This document shows, in pieces, positions 46,818 to 54,185 of a stretch of DNA of 64,000 bases (position 1 is the first letter of the stretch; each line of letters begins with the position of its first letter). Origin of the DNA: Mesorhizobium sp. (GTDB lineage: Bacteria > Pseudomonadota > Alphaproteobacteria > Rhizobiales > Rhizobiaceae). The stretch lies in NCBI GenBank assembly GCA_004020315.1, contig SAQG01000025.1, positions 13,919 to 77,918 on the forward strand. The letters are read 5' to 3'. Under the pieces are notes generated by a model that saw nothing but the letters and a program-made list of their open reading frames with translations, did no database searches and was not told where the DNA came from. Made by a program: the position numbers and the translations under genes.

Positions 46818-48839
46818 TCACACCGCAATCCTTGGCCTGCCCGACGCCACCGCCACCACATGCGCCTCGATGAACATGCGCTGGCCCTCGACGGTCGAGA
46901 CGCGGAATTCGCTGGCGACCTCGATCTCGGCGGCGTCAGTGCCGGCGTCCTTGGCCCGCCCGGCGGCAATGGCGCGGACATCGGTTTCCGCCGCCGCGAT
47001 CGCCGCCGCCTCGTCTTTGAAATCGCGCACGCTTTCGCCTGAGGCGACGCGAAACAGCCCTTCCTTGGGCTGACTGACGCGCGCCTCCGCCGAAACCCTG
47101 ACCTGGCCGACGACGGCGCCGAGCGCATTGGCGACGTCGGTATCCTCGGGCACGACGCAGTCATTGCCGACCAGCTCGGCGAGGCCAGCATAATGCAGCG
47201 GCGCCGAGGCGCCGAGGCCGATGACCGGCCGGTCGAGCGCGACGCTGAGGCGGGCGATGCCGGGATGCGCGTCGACGGCGCGCTGGACCAGCGCGTGCGC
47301 GACGGTCGCCGCGCCGTCGAGCCCGTCCTCGGCAAAGGCGGTCTCGAGGATGACTTCCGCCGACAGGCGGGTCAGCGCGGTCAGCACCCGTTCCGAGATC
47401 GCCTCCGGCGAGGCGGCGATCGCTTGCCCGCGGCCGTCGCGCTTGCGGGCGAACAGCTCCGCACCCAGACGGGCCGAATCGGCATCCCAATTCGCCTGCT
47501 TGCCCAGCACATGGGCGGCATCCGACGGCGTGAAGCCGGCGACATGCACCAGCCCGCGCGATACCAGCCGGTTCAAAGTGGCGTTCTGGGCGTTCGAGGT
47601 CAAAAGCCTGTCGACGGCGAGAGGCGTCGGGCCGATCATCTCGTAAAGCTTGGCCTCGGCGCCGGTCAGGCCGGCCGCCAGCCGCTCCGGCACGCCGGTC
47701 CTGACCGCCAGGCGGCCATCCATGCGGCCGGGGTTAGGCGCCCGCAGCTGGCGTCCCAGTTCGACAGTCACGGCCTCGCCATGCATCATGCCGGCCAGCG
47801 CCAGCGGCACCAGGCGGCGCGGCCCGAGCAGGATCTTTGGGTTGAGCGCGCCGTCCTCCAGCGCCACTTCGGAATCGCCACCGAGCCCAAAAGTGCGCAT
47901 CGCCACCGCCTCGACCATGGTGCGGAAACCGCCGACGGTGGCGCCTTCCGGATCGAGCCGGGGACGGCCCTTGTCGAGCACGGCGACGTCGGTGGTGGTG
48001 CCGCCGATGTCGGAGACGACGGCGTTGTCGAGGCCGGTCATGTGGCGGGCGCCGACCAGGCTGGCGGCCGGGCCGGACAGGATCGTCTCGATCGGCCGCT
48101 GGCGGGCGAAGGCGGCCGAGACCAGGGCGCCGTCACCGCGCACCACCATCAGCGGGGCGGCGATGCCGCGCGCGGCAAGAAAGCCCTCGGTCGCCGCCAC
48201 CAGCCGGTCGATCATCGAGATCAGCCTGGCGTTGAGCAGCGTCGTCAGCGCCCGGCGCGGGCCACCGAGCTTGGCCGAAAGCTCGTGGCTGGCGGTGACC
48301 GGCAGGCCGGTCTTTTCGCGGATCAGGTCGCGGGCGGCGAGTTCATGCGCCGGGTTGCGGGTGGCAAAATAGGCGCAGACGGCAAAGCCCGACACCGAAG
48401 CGCCGAGTTCCGGCAGCGCCGCCTCCAGCCCGGACAGGTCGAGCTTGGCCGCATTGCCGTGGACGTCGTGACCGCCGGGGCAGAACACCACAGGATCGGT
48501 GCCGAGTGCGGCCTTCAGCCCGTCGCGGGCGAGGTCGCCCTCGGAAAAGCCGATCATCACCAGCGCGACGCGGCCGCCCTGGCCCTCGACCAACGCATTG
48601 GTGGCGAGCGTCGTCGACATCGACACCAGTTTTATCGCTGCCGGGTCGGTGCCGGCTTTCTGCAGCACCGCATCGACCGCGCCTGATATGCCGACGGCGA
48701 GGTCGTGGCGGGTGGTGAGCGCCTTGGCCTTGGCCAGCACTTTTCCGCCAGGGCCGCCGGCTTCCGACCACAGCACGGCGTCGGTATAGGTGCCGCCGGT
48801 GTCGATGCCGAGGAACAGGGGTTTGGTCTTGGCGGTCAT
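46818..48839 (-). CDS. Hydantoinase/oxoprolinase family protein
   Basis: 673 aa. N-terminus LFLGIDTGGTYTDAVL and a second actin-fold block VSDIGGTTTDV. Confidence 0.8.
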   Translation of the reverse strand: MTAKTKPLFLGIDTGGTYTDAVLWSEAGGPGGKVLAKAKALTTRHDLAVGISGAVDAVLQKAGTDPAAIKLVSMSTTLATNALVEGQGGRVALVMIGFSEGDLARDGLKAALGTDPVVFCPGGHDVHGNAAKLDLSGLEAALPELGASVSGFAVCAYFATRNPAHELAARDLIREKTGLPVTASHELSAKLGGPRRALTTLLNARLISMIDRLVAATEGFLAARGIAAPLMVVRGDGALVSAAFARQRPIETILSGPAASLVGARHMTGLDNAVVSDIGGTTTDVAVLDKGRPRLDPEGATVGGFRTMVEAVAMRTFGLGGDSEVALEDGALNPKILLGPRRLVPLALAGMMHGEAVTVELGRQLRAPNPGRMDGRLAVRTGVPERLAAGLTGAEAKLYEMIGPTPLAVDRLLTSNAQNATLNRLVSRGLVHVAGFTPSDAAHVLGKQANWDADSARLGAELFARKRDGRGQAIAASPEAISERVLTALTRLSAEVILETAFAEDGLDGAATVAHALVQRAVDAHPGIARLSVALDRPVIGLGASAPLHYAGLAELVGNDCVVPEDTDVANALGAVVGQVRVSAEARVSQPKEGLFRVASGESVRDFKDEAAAIAAAETDVRAIAAGRAKDAGTDAAEIEVASEFRVSTVEGQRMFIEAHVVAVASGRPRIAV

Positions 48840-48925
48840 TGGCGGGTCCGGAGTTTTGCTTCCCCGCCCCTTAACCGATACCGGCCGGCGGATAAAGCCG
48901 CGAGCGCTGGGCCACGATGAAGTTC

Positions 48926-49475
48926 GATCTCCCCCCTTGTGGGGGAGATGTCCGGCAGGACAGAGGGGGGCGCTGTCCCGCCACCCTTGCCGTGGTTACA
49001 TCCCGCTCCGGCCGTTCATTCAGACGCGCGCCCCAGGCCAGCCGCAATCACAATATGCTGGCAGACATTGTCGATGTCGCGGATTATGTCGTCGTTCCAG
49101 AAACGCAGGACGATCCAGCCGTCCTGTTCCAGACGCACTGTCCTTGCTTGGTCGCTGGCGACAGCATCGGTTTCCGTATGATGGCAGCCGTCGGCTTCGA
49201 CAACAAGTTTCTTCTCCGGGCAAGCGAAGTCGACAATGTAACCGGCGATCGGAAATTGTCGCCGGAAGCCAAGCCCCATCAGCCGGTGCGCGCGAAGCTC
49301 GTTCCAGAGCTTCAATTCAGCTGATGTCATGACCTTGCGCATCGATCTGGCGTTTGCGCGATGTTTTGGAGGCAATGGCGTATGAGGCATTGTCAGTGCT
49401 CGATGGCTATTGAAGTTGGCGCTCTACGGCGCCCCCCTCTGTCCTGCCGGACATCTCCCCCACAAGGGGGGAGAT
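48926..49475. mobile_element. REPIN-like cassette D4: 47-bp perfect inverted arms (48927-48973 and 49429-49475) enclosing the DUF559 gene
   Basis: The reverse complement of 48927-48973 is identical to 49429-49475 (GCGCCCCCCTCTGTCCTGCCGGACATCTCCCCCACAAGGGGGGAGAT), compared by hand. The gene ends 42 nt from the left arm and starts 38 nt from the right arm. Mobility is a hypothesis only. Confidence 0.4.
49016..49390 (-). CDS. DUF559 (Vsr-like endonuclease fold) domain protein
   Basis: 124 aa. MTSAELKLWNELRAHRLMGLGFRRQFPIAGYIVDFACPEKKLVVEADGCHH...RFWNDDI, the canonical DUF559 pattern. Confidence 0.85.
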   Translation of the reverse strand: MPHTPLPPKHRANARSMRKVMTSAELKLWNELRAHRLMGLGFRRQFPIAGYIVDFACPEKKLVVEADGCHHTETDAVASDQARTVRLEQDGWIVLRFWNDDIIRDIDNVCQHIVIAAGLGRASE

Positions 49476-49497
49476 TGGCGCTTGGCCGCTGCGCCAG

Positions 49498-50124
49498 CTA
49501 CCCCACAAACCCCACGCTCTTGTGGCTGCCGTCGCAAAACGGCTTGTTCGCCGAATGGCCGCAGCGGCAGAGGAAGGTGCGTTGCGTGCGGTCGACCGTG
49601 TGGCCGGTGCCGGTGACGATTTCGAGATTGCCCTCGAGCTTGAGCGGGCCGTTCTTGGTCGGCGTCACGGTGAGCGGGCCATTCCTCGCGTCCAGCGCCG
49701 GCGTGTCCTTCAGCGCCGGCTCGCCGGTGGCGGTAAAGCCTGATTTGGTGTGGCTGCCATCGCAGAACGGCTTGTTTTCCGAAGCGCCGCAGCGGCACAG
49801 CGTGGCGCGAAAAGACGTCTCGCCATCCAGCACGATCTCGGCATGCAACGCCAGCGGACCGTTTTCCCGGATGCGCACGGTGTTGACCACCGGCGGCTGT
49901 TCCTGCGGCCCGCCATCCTTTCTGATGTAGGTGATGGCGCCCGATGGGCAGCTTTCGGCGATCGCCACGATCTTCTCAACGCTGGCCGCCTCGGGATGGA
50001 TCCACTGACCCTTCGCGTTGGGCACGAAGACACGCGGATCGCCAAGCACGCAATTGCGCGAATGGATGCAGCGTTTTCCTGAAAAGCCGACATCGATCTT
50101 TTCGCCTTCGACCATGCCTGCCAT
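49498..50124 (-). CDS. CDGSH iron-sulfur domain protein with an N-terminal divergent 4Fe-4S-type module
   Basis: Two CDGSH motifs (NKPFCDGSHTKSGF and NKPFCDGSHKSVGF) plus an N-terminal Cys cluster (CIHSRNC ... CPSGAI). Confidence 0.85.
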   Translation of the reverse strand: MAGMVEGEKIDVGFSGKRCIHSRNCVLGDPRVFVPNAKGQWIHPEAASVEKIVAIAESCPSGAITYIRKDGGPQEQPPVVNTVRIRENGPLALHAEIVLDGETSFRATLCRCGASENKPFCDGSHTKSGFTATGEPALKDTPALDARNGPLTVTPTKNGPLKLEGNLEIVTGTGHTVDRTQRTFLCRCGHSANKPFCDGSHKSVGFVG

Positions 50125-50246
50125 GGGTGGGGTCTCCTAGGTTGCAGATAGGCTAGGGCTGCTGCGCGAAGGGCGTCAAGTAGCGCCTTTCTTTCCCTTG
50201 TGGGCAGGACCATGTCAGGGATTATCGAAGGCCCCCAAGGACGGAC

Positions 50247-50388
50247 GATTTCCCCTTGAGGGGGAGATGTCGCCGAAGGCGATAGAGGGGTCGGTACGTC
50301 CTGACACGACCCCATCGCGGACAGAGGATGCCGGTGCTCCACGCGAGGCTTCTGGCCTGCCGGCCTTCTCCCCCTCAAGGGGAGATGG
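50247..50388. repeat. REP/REPIN-like inverted doublet D5 (units 50247-50294 and 50347-50388)
   Basis: Unit 1: GATTTCCCC-ttga-GGGGGAGAT, GTCGCC-gaa-GGCGAT, AGAGGGGTCGG. Unit 2 inverted: GGCC-tgcc-GGCC, TTCTCCCC-ctcaa-GGGGAGAT. As a whole it is the reverse-orientation counterpart of D3. Confidence 0.85.
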
Positions 50389-50404
50389 CCGCGTCAACCC
50401 ACCC

Positions 50405-52150
50405 GACAACATAAAAAAGTATTGGCCGCATGCATGTCGATCACTGCACGTTGACGCGCAAGGACAGGCGTTACAAACTAGCCCAGTTTTAAGAAGAACT
50501 AACCAAAGGCGGCTGGTCGTGATTGAGTTCACCGGGGACGACCCAAACGTTTTTGCCGAAAGGATGCTCGAAAATGGTTACATCCCCGAGAATGTTCCAC
50601 CCCCCTTCAGAATAGAAAATCTACACGAAGCCTATCTGACGTACGCAGCTAGCGGCGAGTACATAACGGGAAAGGTACCGACGGAGAGTACTCGCTACAA
50701 CGCTTCTAAACGAAATCGCCAGCGGCGTATTTTTTCGATGCCGAATCCCGTTTTCATGATCGACTGTGTTAAGTATTTTATCGATCGAGCAGACCAAATT
50801 GACGAGCATTTCTCTTTGTCGAGTGACTCCTGTTCGAAACCAGTTTTTATCCCGTCTGGCTCTCGAGCACTCCAGATCGATAGCTTCAACGACTTTTATC
50901 TGAAAAGACGCCGCACATTTTCTACGTCCAGATACATCGTAAAATGCGACATATCGCGTTTCTATCACTCAATATACACCCACTGCATCCCTTGGGCTCT
51001 TCACGGGAAAGGTAAGGCCAAGGCCGATCGCAAAGTCGACTCCGATTCTATCTTTGGCAATCGACTGGATTTTACAATTCGACAAAGCCAAGACGGGCAG
51101 ACAGTTGGAATTCCAGTCGGGCCGGATTTTTCTCGTCTCATTTCGGAAATTGTGGCAACCAGAATTGACGCTAGTTTCCGGTCGACAGCGGGAGCAGATG
51201 TCCCTGTTTTGCGATTGGTAGACGACATTTATCTGGGAGCCGACAACCTTGATGAGGCCTACGGGCTTCTTGGAGTAATGCGGGATTCAATCCGAGAGCT
51301 AGAACTTGATATAAACGAGGCCAAAACCGTAGTCATCGATGCAAGCAGGGACTTTGAATCGCCTTGGCCAGTACATATTAGACAGTCAATTGACAGATTT
51401 AAGGAGTACAAGCAGTCCCTCGTTCCAGAGTTTATTCATGTTCTAGACGAGATAATATCTATATCGATCGATAAAAATGACGATGGGATTATTAAATACG
51501 CTCTTCGCAAGCTGGATAACGAGCTGGTATGGGTAGACTATTGGGAAGCAATTGAGCCATTTCTGATTAGGTGCTGCATATCGTTCCCGCACAGCTGGGA
51601 CTACGTGGCTCAGATAGTTTCCTTGAGAAATGCTATCTCTGGAATTGATAAATCTACTTGGTCGCGCGCGATCAACAAATCATTAGCACAGAACGTCCGT
51701 ACGGGTCACGACTTCGAGGTAACCTGGAGCCTCTGGCTCGCACGGCAATTGAAGATCGAAATTGACGACAAGATATTTGAGCAGATCTTTGAGAAGTGCG
51801 GGTCCTTTTCAATGCTGGTTGCGCTTGACGTACACAAAAATAGCGGGATGGCATGCAAGGTGCCCAAGCAGACCATCCTGTCAAGGTTAGGAGATAAACC
51901 TTGCCTCGGCCCCTTTTGGTTACTTGCGTTCGAAGCCGACCGGCAGTTCGATCTCAAGATCAAGACTAAGAACCTTCAGGGGCACGACTTTTTTAAGTCT
52001 CTTTATGATGACGATGTGTCATTCTATGATTCAGATTTTGAGTTCTTTGACACCGACGATCTTCTTACGACAGGAAAAACAGCTATTAAGAAAACAACGT
52101 CGTATGACGACTCGGAGATCGACGAAATTGAGGATGATTTTTGATCGAAG
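50405..52150. other. AT-rich islet (probable horizontally acquired insert) containing only the RT gene
   Basis: By eye, base composition drops sharply at about 50405 and recovers at about 52150. The flanks are GC-rich core genes (CDGSH protein, lepA). Exact GC was not computed. Confidence 0.65.
50519..52144 (+). CDS. AbiK/Abi-P2-like (UG/Abi class) reverse transcriptase with a C-terminal helical-repeat domain and an acidic tail; candidate abortive-infection/defense RT
   Basis: Part of ORF 50198..52144. I place the start at GTG 50519 (AAAGG 9-10 nt upstream) because everything upstream is the D5 repeat and a GC-rich spacer; ATG 50564 is an alternative. RT motifs: RRIFSMPNP; VKCDISRFYHSIYTHCIPWALHGKGKAK; GIPVGPDFSRLISEI; LRLVDDIYLG; LDINEAKT. 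These parallel AbiK as I recall it (LDLSNFYHTLYTHSIPW, HGIPTGNLLSRIITE, SRYVDDF). Confidence 0.8.
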   Translation: MIEFTGDDPNVFAERMLENGYIPENVPPPFRIENLHEAYLTYAASGEYITGKVPTESTRYNASKRNRQRRIFSMPNPVFMIDCVKYFIDRADQIDEHFSLSSDSCSKPVFIPSGSRALQIDSFNDFYLKRRRTFSTSRYIVKCDISRFYHSIYTHCIPWALHGKGKAKADRKVDSDSIFGNRLDFTIRQSQDGQTVGIPVGPDFSRLISEIVATRIDASFRSTAGADVPVLRLVDDIYLGADNLDEAYGLLGVMRDSIRELELDINEAKTVVIDASRDFESPWPVHIRQSIDRFKEYKQSLVPEFIHVLDEIISISIDKNDDGIIKYALRKLDNELVWVDYWEAIEPFLIRCCISFPHSWDYVAQIVSLRNAISGIDKSTWSRAINKSLAQNVRTGHDFEVTWSLWLARQLKIEIDDKIFEQIFEKCGSFSMLVALDVHKNSGMACKVPKQTILSRLGDKPCLGPFWLLAFEADRQFDLKIKTKNLQGHDFFKSLYDDDVSFYDSDFEFFDTDDLLTTGKTAIKKTTSYDDSEIDEIEDDF

Positions 52151-52153
52151 CTT

Positions 52154-52178
52154 GCCATCGATCCACCGGATCGATGGC
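52154..52178. terminator. Perfect 11-bp hairpin (GCCATCGATCC-acc-GGATCGATGGC) between the convergent RT and lepA genes
   Basis: Read directly, 10 nt after the RT stop. There is no U-tract on either strand, so it is terminator-like only by position. Confidence 0.4.
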
Positions 52179-52215
52179 TCGGCACCGCGCTGCGCGCGGA
52201 CGCCCGACCGGCGCC

Positions 52216-54021
52216 TCAATCCCCCATCTTCAGCGCCTGGATAAACGCTTCCTGCGGGATATCCACCTTGCCGAACTGGCGCATCCGCTTCTTGCCCTCT
52301 TTCTGCTTGTCGAGCAGCTTGCGCTTGCGTGAGACGTCGCCGCCGTAGCATTTGGCCGTGACGTCCTTGCGCAGCGCCGAGATCGTTTCGCGGGCGATGA
52401 CCTTGCCGCCGATGGCCGCCTGGATCGGGATCTTGAACAGATGGTTCGGGATCAGCTCCTTCAGCTTCTCGCACATCAGCCGGCCGCGCTTTTCCGCCGC
52501 CGTGCGGTGGACCAGCATCGACAGCGCGTCGACCGGCTCCTCATTGACCAGGATCGACATTTTCACCAGGTCGCCCTCGCGGTAGTCGGTCAGGTGATAG
52601 TCGAAGGAGGCGTAGCCCTTGGAGATCGACTTCAGCCGGTCGTAGAAGTCGAAGACGACCTCGTTGAGCGGCAGATCGTAGATCAGCATGGCGCGCTTTC
52701 CTACGTAAGAAAGATCCGATTGGATGCCGCGCCGGTCCTGGCAGAGTTTTAGGATGCCGCCGAGATACTCGTCGGGGGTGAGGATGGTGGCGCGGATCCA
52801 CGGCTCCTCGATGGCCTGGATTTTGACCACGTCGGGCATGTCGGCCGGGTTGTGCAGTTCTTTCGTCGTGCCGTCGTTCAACAGCAGCCGGTAGACGACC
52901 GACGGTGCGGTGGCGATGAGGTCGAGATTGAATTCGCGCTCCAGCCGCTCCTGGATGATTTCCAGATGTAAAAGGCCAAGGAAGCCGCAGCGATAGCCGA
53001 AGCCGAGCGCGGCGCTGGTTTCCATTTCAAAGGAGAAGCTGGCGTCGTTGAGGCGCAATTTGCCGACCGCGGCGCGCAGATCCTCGAAATCGGCGGCGTC
53101 GACCGGGAACAGGCCGCAGAACACCACCGGCTGCGCCGGCTTGAAGCCGGGCAGGGCCTGCGCCGTCTGGCGCTTGTCCTCGGTGATGGTGTCGCCGACA
53201 CGGGTGTCGGCGACTTCCTTGATCGAGCCGGTGAAGAAGCCGAACTCGCCGGGGCCGAGCTCGTCGACATTGATGCGGGCAGGGGTGAAGACACCGGTGC
53301 GCTCGACCAGATACTTGGCGCCGGTGCCCATCATGCGGATGGTCTGGCCCTTCTTCAGCACGCCGTCGATGACGCGGACCAGCACGATGACGCCGAGATA
53401 GGCGTCGTACCAGCTGTCGACCAGCATCGCCTTGAGCGGGGCCGTGATATCGCCCTCGCGCGGCGGCGGCAATTCGTTGACGATCGCCTCCAGCACGTCG
53501 GGAATGCCGAGCCCCGTCTTGGCCGAAATCAGCACGGCGTTGGAGGCGTCGATGCCGATCACCTCCTCGACCTGCTCGCGGATGCGTTCGGGCTCGGCGG
53601 CCGGCAGGTCGACCTTGTTCAGCACCACGACGATCTCGTGGTTGTTGTCGATGGCCTGGTAGACATTGGCCAGCGTCTGCGCCTCGACGCCCTGGCTGGC
53701 ATCGACGACCAACAGCGAGCCCTCGCAGGCGGCAAGCGACCGCGACACCTCGTAAGCGAAGTCGACATGGCCGGGCGTGTCGATCAGGTTGAGGATATAG
53801 TCCTCGCCATTGCTGGCGCGGTATTTCAGCCGCACAGTCTGCGCCTTGATGGTGATGCCGCGCTCGCGCTCGATGTCCATCGAGTCCAGCACCTGCTCCT
53901 TCATGTCGCGCAGCTCCAGCCCGCCGGTGGACTGGATCAGCCGGTCGGCAAGCGTGGATTTGCCATGGTCGATATGGGCGACGATGGAGAAATTGCGGAT
54001 GTTCTTAATCGGCGTTGTCAT
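52216..54021 (-). CDS. lepA: Translation elongation factor 4 (LepA)
   Basis: ATG at 54021 ([27 protein letters not shown]) inside ORF 52216..54078. DTPGHVDF and NKVD GTPase motifs. Confidence 0.95.
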
Positions 54022-54185
54022 GTCGCGCGCTTTAGCAGGGGCAGCTTGCCCGGGCAAGCGGCGGCGGGCGCGGCGCATAAGCCGCCGACGGGCGCAAAGC
54101 CGTTAAACTTTGATCCATCAGATTAGAGCATAGTTCGCGCCCTGCGTGACAGGCTACGACCTGTCACCGTTTGGGGGGCCAAGCA

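Follow-up and report, generated by a model that had tools for sequence, protein, structure and literature searches.

We analysed a window of 64,000 nucleotides (nt) from Mesorhizobium sp. (contig SAQG01000025.1, positions 13,919 to 77,918), in which an AT-rich islet between lepA and a gene for a CDGSH protein carries a reverse transcriptase (RT) gene (Table 1). With a probability of about 0.85, the islet RT is a DRT6 (UG12) enzyme, a class 1 UG/Abi RT that constitutes a single-protein abortive-infection system. This assignment rests on the best full-length profile match in PADLOC and on the best structural match, Protein Data Bank (PDB) entry 9wy8. A first-pass annotation, made from the nucleotide sequence, had raised the possibility of an undescribed subgroup. 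Both matches instead place the protein in DRT6 (equivalent to UG12), a named and validated family of which it is a divergent, mostly alphaproteobacterial member. As the family has already been shown to block phages and has been structurally solved, the locus is not a new system.

The only Pfam domain in the islet RT is RVT_1 (residues 132–273), which scores above the gathering threshold (E 7e-9), and Pfam returned no maturase, endonuclease or other domain beyond it. The search of defence and UG profiles gave a best PADLOC match to Drt6 (UG12) PDLC03748 at 508 bits (E 7.5e-153), spanning residues 13–533 of the protein and positions 4–505 of the 511 in the profile. The next models were a legacy 'Drt4' (387 bits, a margin of 121 bits), UG30 (227 bits), AbiK (146 bits) and Abi-P2 (95 bits). 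PDLC03748 also matches other members of the subclade and the validated DRT6 protein from Sphingopyxis, with scores of 483–613 bits. In a sequence search of the PDB, 9wy8 was recovered with E 9e-66 and 226 bits over residues 14–530, with weaker matches to DRT4/UG15 (E 5e-21, 78 bits) and AbiK (E 2e-13), while a profile search returned 9wy8 with E 4e-113. The islet RT has 581 homologues at E <= 1e-10.

The catalytic core is intact. The translation contains the ordered RT motif strings RRIFSMPNP, DISRFYHSIYTHCIPWALHGKGKAK, GIPVGPDFSRLISEI, LVDDIY and LDINEAKT, all in the order given in the first-pass annotation. Residues D144, K269 and the tyrosine of 'SIYTH' (Tyr153) are invariant in 82 homologues and present in 236–237 of 238 members of a larger sequence set, and V234, D235 and D236 are invariant in the same 82 family members. 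An AlphaFold2 model of the monomer, built on an 82-sequence alignment (A1), reached a mean predicted local distance difference test (pLDDT) score of 94.1 and a predicted template-modelling (pTM) score of 0.92. Its RT domain is of mixed alpha/beta structure; after it come an all-helical region (residues 283–497), which agrees with the helical appearance noted earlier for the 200 or so residues after the RT motifs, and a disordered end (residues 532–541). Foldseek placed 9wy8, entitled 'Cryo-EM structure of the hexameric DRT6', at rank 1 (E 1e-29, template-modelling (TM) scores 0.86/0.93), and the two structures superpose with a root-mean-square deviation of 2.3 Å over 509 columns. The VDD motif of 9wy8 corresponds to D223/D224 after subtraction of the offset introduced by the maltose-binding protein (MBP) fusion, which identifies this entry as the Sphingopyxis DRT6 of the functional studies. 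Further down the ranking are DRT4/UG15 (TM 0.77), AbiK (0.62–0.70), Abi-P2 (0.48–0.60) and AbiA (about 0.4), with the RTs of group II introns, retrons and diversity-generating retroelements (DGRs) far behind. The helical domain region superposes on DRT6, DRT4 and AbiK; in UG15, partial deletion of the alpha-helical repeat domain abolishes immunity (PMC9226505).

This is a single-gene system without a non-coding RNA (ncRNA) or partner protein. The list of open reading frames (ORFs) contains one long TTG-extended frame on the plus strand (50198..52144) and no second credible ORF in the islet, no RNA was found by an Rfam scan of 48800–52400 at E <= 1, and no conserved neighbour gene is common to the homologue loci of S. 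fredii, Kaistia and Aureimonas. An ncRNA partner was sought in that Rfam scan and was rejected on its result. In Kaistia the insertion consists of the homologue alone; in S. fredii the homologue is part of an overt defence island that also contains SIR2, a Type ISP restriction enzyme, Mrr and a further RT, and at one homologue locus the upstream gap is only 69 bp. The description of a stand-alone class 1 UG/Abi RT, with neither partner gene nor endonuclease, maturase or integrase, is therefore upheld by Pfam, PADLOC and the ORF list. The same is true of the proposed 541-residue frame from GTG 50519: it translates as described, the N-termini of about 120 homologues align to this start, and an identical 541-residue public protein (P0001) is deposited as 'RNA-directed DNA polymerase [Mesorhizobium sp.]'. 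The TTG-extended ORF from 50198 crosses a REP-type (repetitive extragenic palindromic) repeat without homologue support, and the GTG start was preferred. The AT-rich leader upstream of the gene, which presumably holds the promoter and ribosome-binding site, is identical in sequence 5' of the gene in two public assemblies (L081 and L082). Terminator-like matches around the islet are at chance level.

The function of the family has been established in E. coli. UG12, named DRT type 6 by Mestre et al. (2022, PMC9226505), protects E. coli from T5 and ZL-19, and an RT active-site mutant loses this protection (PMC9226505). The Sphingopyxis protein (PHR10625.1) is oligomeric and acts by abortive infection; it synthesises DNA independently of a template, with the product covalently bound to the protein, and its D223A/D224A mutant is inactive (Nature Communications 2025, PMC12783706). 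Co-expression of the T5 DNA-binding protein ORF55 makes it toxic, as does a knockout of sbcB, which encodes exonuclease I (ExoI) (PMC12783706). A hexameric cryo-EM structure of DRT6 has been published (Wang et al. 2025, BBRC 791:152955).

From homology to Sphingopyxis DRT6 and to DRT4, both studied in E. coli, we infer the oligomeric state, the protein-primed template-independent synthesis, the trigger and the anti-phage phenotype of the islet RT in Mesorhizobium. The enzyme would assemble as a hexamer and constitutively make single-stranded DNA (ssDNA) without an RNA template, this DNA being covalently attached to the enzyme through protein priming. In the uninfected cell, a host 3'-5' exonuclease would remove the ssDNA, keeping it short and harmless. 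Upon infection, the 3' ends would be shielded by a phage protein that binds ssDNA in the manner of T5 ORF55, such that the shielded ssDNA would accumulate to toxic levels and the infected cell would cease growth before the phage cycle ends.

Several observations weigh against the assignment or against this mechanism. Both the trigger (T5 ORF55) and the nuclease (E. coli ExoI/SbcB) of the published model come from work in E. coli, and Mesorhizobium and its phages may or may not have equivalents. The islet RT shares only about 29% identity with the validated DRT6 (28.7% over 502 residues of the full 564-residue Sphingopyxis protein, P0265), and both it and its alphaproteobacterial subclade are known from sequence. 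A promoter scan of the islet found no sigma-70 consensus site and hence no recognisable promoter. The validated Sphingopyxis DRT6 itself scores 763 bits on the legacy model PDLC02179 ('Drt4') versus 613 on PDLC03748 ('Drt6'). The PADLOC names are therefore unreliable on their own for separating Drt4 from Drt6, and the assignment rests on the UG12-derived profile together with the sequence and structure matches in the PDB. Finally, the tyrosine that primes synthesis in DRT4 (Tyr125) aligns with Phe123 of the islet RT, at a column where the DRT6 consensus is His.

The acidic tail of the islet RT had been described as atypical, yet such a tail is a hallmark of DRT6 proteins. The validated Sphingopyxis enzyme has one as well, with '...DEEYFDS' followed by an acidic run of about 25 residues. 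The tail consensus in the family of the islet RT is A-I-E-x4-5-Y-D-D, with Tyr529 invariant in 82/82 sequences. Over the last 25 residues of 111 full-length homologues, 43% of positions are Asp/Glu and 4% are Lys/Arg, and Phe, with a background frequency of 5.5%, is the final residue in 72 of the 111. Residues 532–541 have pLDDT values below 50 in the model, and the tail is unmodelled in 9wy8. When 114 proteins of the validated clade were aligned with 82 of the window clade, no more than two Tyr columns proved invariant across both DRT6 clades, namely the 'SIYTH' Tyr of the RT domain and the tail Tyr (196/196). As a control, the same invariance test was applied to 118 DRT4 proteins, where Tyr125 (118/118) is among four invariant tyrosines and the Tyr of the DRT4 tail motif 'AExY[CS]' is kept in at most about 72/118. 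This reciprocal pattern, with the tail Tyr invariant in DRT6 and the DRT4 Tyr125 lacking there, points to the tail Tyr as the leading candidate for priming in DRT6. Two other tyrosines were considered: Tyr127, near the DRT4 priming position, is not conserved in this clade, its column being His/Glu/Thr, and was rejected as a primer, and Tyr60, for which many members have Phe or His, is an unlikely one.

In some relatives the extreme end of the tail recalls a second class of proteins. Among 264 collected relatives, 16 end in [DE]x0-1[DE]-[ILVM]-P-[FYL] (for example ELDDDIPF and VEDDIPF), although the islet RT itself ends EDDF and not DDIPF. A D-D-[IL]-P-F-like end is the C-terminal tip of SSB (the bacterial protein that binds single-stranded DNA), which docks ExoI and other partners, and the phage T7 protein gp2.5 also has an acidic tail ending in Phe. 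From these sequence patterns we tentatively propose that the DRT6 tail might be a functional module, in which (a) the invariant Tyr (residue 529 of the islet RT and residue 536 of the validated DRT6) primes DNA synthesis in place of Tyr125 and (b) the acidic run and Phe mimic the SSB tip; we regard this as possible but doubtful. An SSB-like tip could serve to hold factors that bind SSB tips, for example the 3'-5' exonuclease that checks the product; alternatively, the acidic tip could interact with the cleft through which the phage SSB-like trigger binds DNA. Recruitment of either kind is plausible given that ExoI restrains DRT6 toxicity. No SSB gene for comparison of the tip was found in the window, and a PDB search with the tail peptide, a low-complexity sequence, gave no useful match. 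The accessible literature makes no mention of a functional tail module, although the DRT6 structure paper (BBRC 2025) may already settle the priming Tyr. A separate DRT6-like subgroup (P0200, P0218, P0248, P0245, P0193 and others, all representatives of 50%-identity clusters) is without the acidic run; its short tail is rich in Gly/Ser and finishes with a Tyr (...GGGGY, ...SGY), which may correspond to the conserved tail Tyr moved to the last position.

These features also bear on an alternative in which the islet RT is a true DRT6 protein that follows another trigger or effector logic in Mesorhizobium, for instance with the tail directly engaging SSB-binding partners of the host or phage. The conservation of the invariant Tyr, acidic run and terminal Phe would fit this, as would the 16 relatives with a D-D-[IL]-P-F-like end and the toxicity of DRT6 without ExoI, itself an SSB-tip-binding nuclease. 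We nevertheless judge it unlikely, since the argument is drawn purely from sequence, the islet RT ends EDDF, and its tail, a part left unmodelled in 9wy8, is disordered in the prediction.

Less probable still, and in our estimate very much so, is that the islet RT is DRT4 (UG15), a sister single-gene system with the same chemistry and a defined priming residue in Tyr125. Several PADLOC 'Drt4' models do match the full length of the protein with 170–387 bits, and Drt4 (NF041749) is the only substantial match in NCBIfam, which is without a DRT6 model. However, the NCBIfam score of 188 bits lies far below the cutoff of 450 required of an equivalog, and the best-scoring 'Drt4' model of PADLOC is one that gives its highest score to the validated DRT6. 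DRT4 chains in the PDB match with 78 bits, as opposed to 226 for DRT6, and with a TM score of 0.77 as opposed to 0.86–0.93, and the invariant Tyr125 is replaced by Phe123. A retron, group II intron or DGR RT, or a decayed remnant without a defence role, is highly improbable. Weak NCBIfam matches to group II intron RTs (28 bits) and to the retron (St85) RT (27 bits) exist, and Mesorhizobium sp. YC-39 does carry a true retron RT-protease at the same hotspot, but these scores are ten times below the respective cutoffs of 300 and 235, Pfam shows no maturase, endonuclease or accessory gene, and Rfam shows no intron or retron RNA. As for a remnant, the reading frame is unbroken, no catalytic residue is missing, and conservation is clear across the homologues. 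That the protein belongs to the AbiK or Abi-P2 family proper is scarcely credible: despite an equal domain plan and a Foldseek probability of 1.0, the profile matches cover only the RT domain (residues 50–322 and 138–274), are three to five times weaker than that of Drt6, and accompany TM scores of 0.62–0.70 and 0.48–0.60 at 15–19% identity, which falls short of full-length similarity. The 'AbiK/Abi-P2-like' label of the first-pass annotation is thus right about relatedness, the RT domain being shared by sequence, but these are distant relatives only.

The islet is horizontally acquired low-GC DNA, as the G+C content (GC) and third-codon-position GC (GC3) deficit, the low-GC homologues, the absence of the gene from related loci and the presence of other low-GC cargo all indicate. 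The RT ORF has a GC of 0.465 versus 0.634 for the window, the lowest of all 1.6-kb windows within the 64 kb (z = -5.3), and a GC3 of 0.52, where lepA and the CDGSH gene reach 0.88 and 0.81, respectively. The GC profile falls from 0.60–0.73 in the flanks to 0.43–0.50 over roughly 50400–52145, and the flanking genes are confirmed by Pfam, in keeping with the AT-rich single-gene islet first described. Homologues elsewhere show the same pattern, with GC of 0.44–0.49 in hosts with flanks of 0.54–0.67. Distant DRT6-like genes (28–30% identical) also occur on IMG/VR contigs predicted to be viral or prophage (L088–L092), which fits carriage of the DRT6 family by phages; the L088 protein ends ...DDDDDDDLPF.

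We compared the lepA–CDGSH junction by scanning species-representative genomes with the CDGSH protein, which yielded 14 Mesorhizobium loci (L001–L014). The RT gene is absent from all 14, in line with the earlier proposal of horizontal acquisition. In 6 of the 14 loci lepA lies near the CDGSH gene, across an interval of 2.2–5.9 kb with variable content. The interval of M. prunaredense (L003) holds native-GC genes only, and each of the other five has a low-GC block directly downstream of lepA with cargo that is different every time (Table 1), including a retron RT-protease and a HipA-like kinase. This makes the lepA–CDGSH site a hotspot of variable cargo, in which defence and toxin-antitoxin functions are abundant. 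In a blastn comparison with M. prunaredense, homology runs from lepA to 52145, one base past the RT stop codon, and resumes at 50186. Two adjacent membrane-protein genes (about 170 residues each) lie between lepA and the CDGSH gene in L003 and L008–L011, and one is also found in L004; the pair is absent from the entire 64-kb window, which argues that the islet replaced resident DNA. The ORF list shows no integrase or transposase at the islet, and a search for flanking direct repeats or attachment (att) sites found only short, chance-level repeats. In L003 (6651–6772) and L010 (2911–3047) there is a second copy of the last 131–137 bp of lepA (window 52214–52350), 80% and 94% identical respectively and a few hundred bp downstream of the true lepA end. 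These copies bracket small inserted segments and are likely scars of (site-specific) recombination at the 3' end of lepA; no duplicate of this kind exists in the window.

Table 1. Features of the islet, its surroundings and the corresponding site in other Mesorhizobium loci. Coordinates refer to the window unless a locus is named.
Feature	Coordinates	Strand	Description and basis
DRT6 (UG12) defence reverse transcriptase gene	50519..52144	+	541 residues, GTG start, TGA stop; translation, identical NCBI protein, PADLOC, Foldseek
AT-rich leader upstream of gene	50388..50518	+	Separates the REP-type doublet, which ends at 50386, from the start codon; GC drops here
RT fingers/palm domain	50666..51358	+	Residues ~50–280; Pfam RVT_1 over 132–273
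Motif A Asp144	50948-50950	+	Inside the RT fingers/palm domain, which also holds the Lys269 motif LDINEAKT
Catalytic motif C Val234-Asp235-Asp236 (LVDD)	51218..51226	+	Invariant; aligns with YVDD of Sphingopyxis DRT6
C-terminal alpha-helical repeat domain	51365..52009	+	Residues ~283–497; AlphaFold helices only, pLDDT ~95
Conserved C-terminal tail	52076..52141	+	Residues 520–541: A-I-x5-S-Tyr529-D-D, acidic run, terminal Phe541
Tyr529 codon	52103-52105	+	Inside the conserved tail
Native lepA-distal intergenic DNA, right islet boundary	52145..52215	.	blastn identity with M. prunaredense (L003)
LepA	52216..54078	-	Pfam
REP-type inverted-repeat doublet (REPIN) at left edge	50248..50386	.	Neighbour and boundary marker, outside the defence system
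zf-CDGSH x2 + Fer4_19 protein	49498..50124	-	Pfam
DUF559 protein	49016..49390	-	Pfam
Retron type XI RT-trypsin-like protease, cargo in L006 (Mesorhizobium sp. YC-39)	L006:5795-7381	-	PADLOC, 539 bits
SocA/Panacea antitoxin-domain protein, cargo in L006	L006:4489-5013	+	Accompanied by one uncharacterised ORF
HipA-like kinase, cargo in L008			With a weak DUF3037-like neighbour
HARE-HTH protein, cargo in L009			With one unknown
Two unknowns, cargo in L010			
Ham1/AAA protein, cargo in L011			With two others

The left edge of the islet is marked by a REP-type doublet whose arms (50248–50267 and 50367–50386) are 95% complementary, with a DNA fold z-score of -4.6. The surroundings had been considered atypical on account of this repeat. 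It is in fact common in this genome and its relatives, with nine copies in the window versus 0 expected and recurrent copies in related Mesorhizobium loci, and it is not specific to the islet. An inverted pair of this REP-type repeat (48932–48950, plus strand; 49452–49470, minus strand) flanks the neighbouring gene for a DUF559 protein, a very-short-patch-repair-like endonuclease with a lower GC of 0.57. L009 has two DUF559 copies, and the gene may move with the repeats.

The value of the locus lies mainly in its correct annotation, whereby a generic 'RNA-directed DNA polymerase' becomes a DRT6 protein in a genus of nitrogen-fixing symbionts. The lepA-proximal hotspot, which swaps defence and toxin-antitoxin cargo between species, is useful for mapping phage resistance in rhizobia and for finding further defence genes. 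The conserved tail is the only potentially new lead. If the proposed roles of the tail Tyr and the SSB-like tip were true, they would bear on where DRT6 starts its DNA and on how the product is coupled to the host exonuclease or to phage SSB-like triggers.

Comparison with known systems places the islet RT at increasing proximity to a series of class 1 Abi and UG enzymes. Abi-P2 (7r08) and AbiA (8oz7) share the general domain plan of class 1 Abi RTs, but at the lowest fold similarity (TM 0.48–0.60 and about 0.4, respectively), and AbiA carries an extra HEPN domain. Abi-P2 is a trimer and AbiA a dimer (DRT10 preprint). Lactococcus AbiK (7r06/7r07) likewise combines an RT domain with a helical repeat domain, but its match to the islet RT (146 bits) is confined to the RT domain and its priming residue, Tyr44, is N-terminal (7z0z being the Y44F variant). 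AbiK is a hexameric, protein-primed, template-independent DNA polymerase that acts in abortive infection. E. coli DRT4 (UG15; 9vdo, 9l9s and others) is closer in fold and is, like the islet RT, a class 1 UG/Abi single-gene RT. It makes protein-primed ssDNA without a template, and the ORF55/ExoI logic is common to DRT4 and DRT6. DRT4 differs in its identity of only about 19%, in a tail that is 20% Asp/Glu versus 43% in DRT6, and in Tyr125, which the islet RT does not conserve. Closest is the Sphingopyxis DRT6 (PHR10625.1; hexamer 9wy8), which matches the islet RT over its full length in both profile and fold, shares the RT and helical repeat architecture, the VDD motif and the single-gene organisation, and follows the same tail plan of an invariant Tyr in an acidic stretch and then a poly-acidic run. 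The two differ in the residue before VDD (Leu in the islet RT, Tyr in the Sphingopyxis enzyme) and in the form of the tail, which reads 'FDFDxxDEEYFDS ...' in the validated clade and 'AIE-x4-5-Y-D-D ... F' in the islet RT, which belongs to an alphaproteobacterial subclade.

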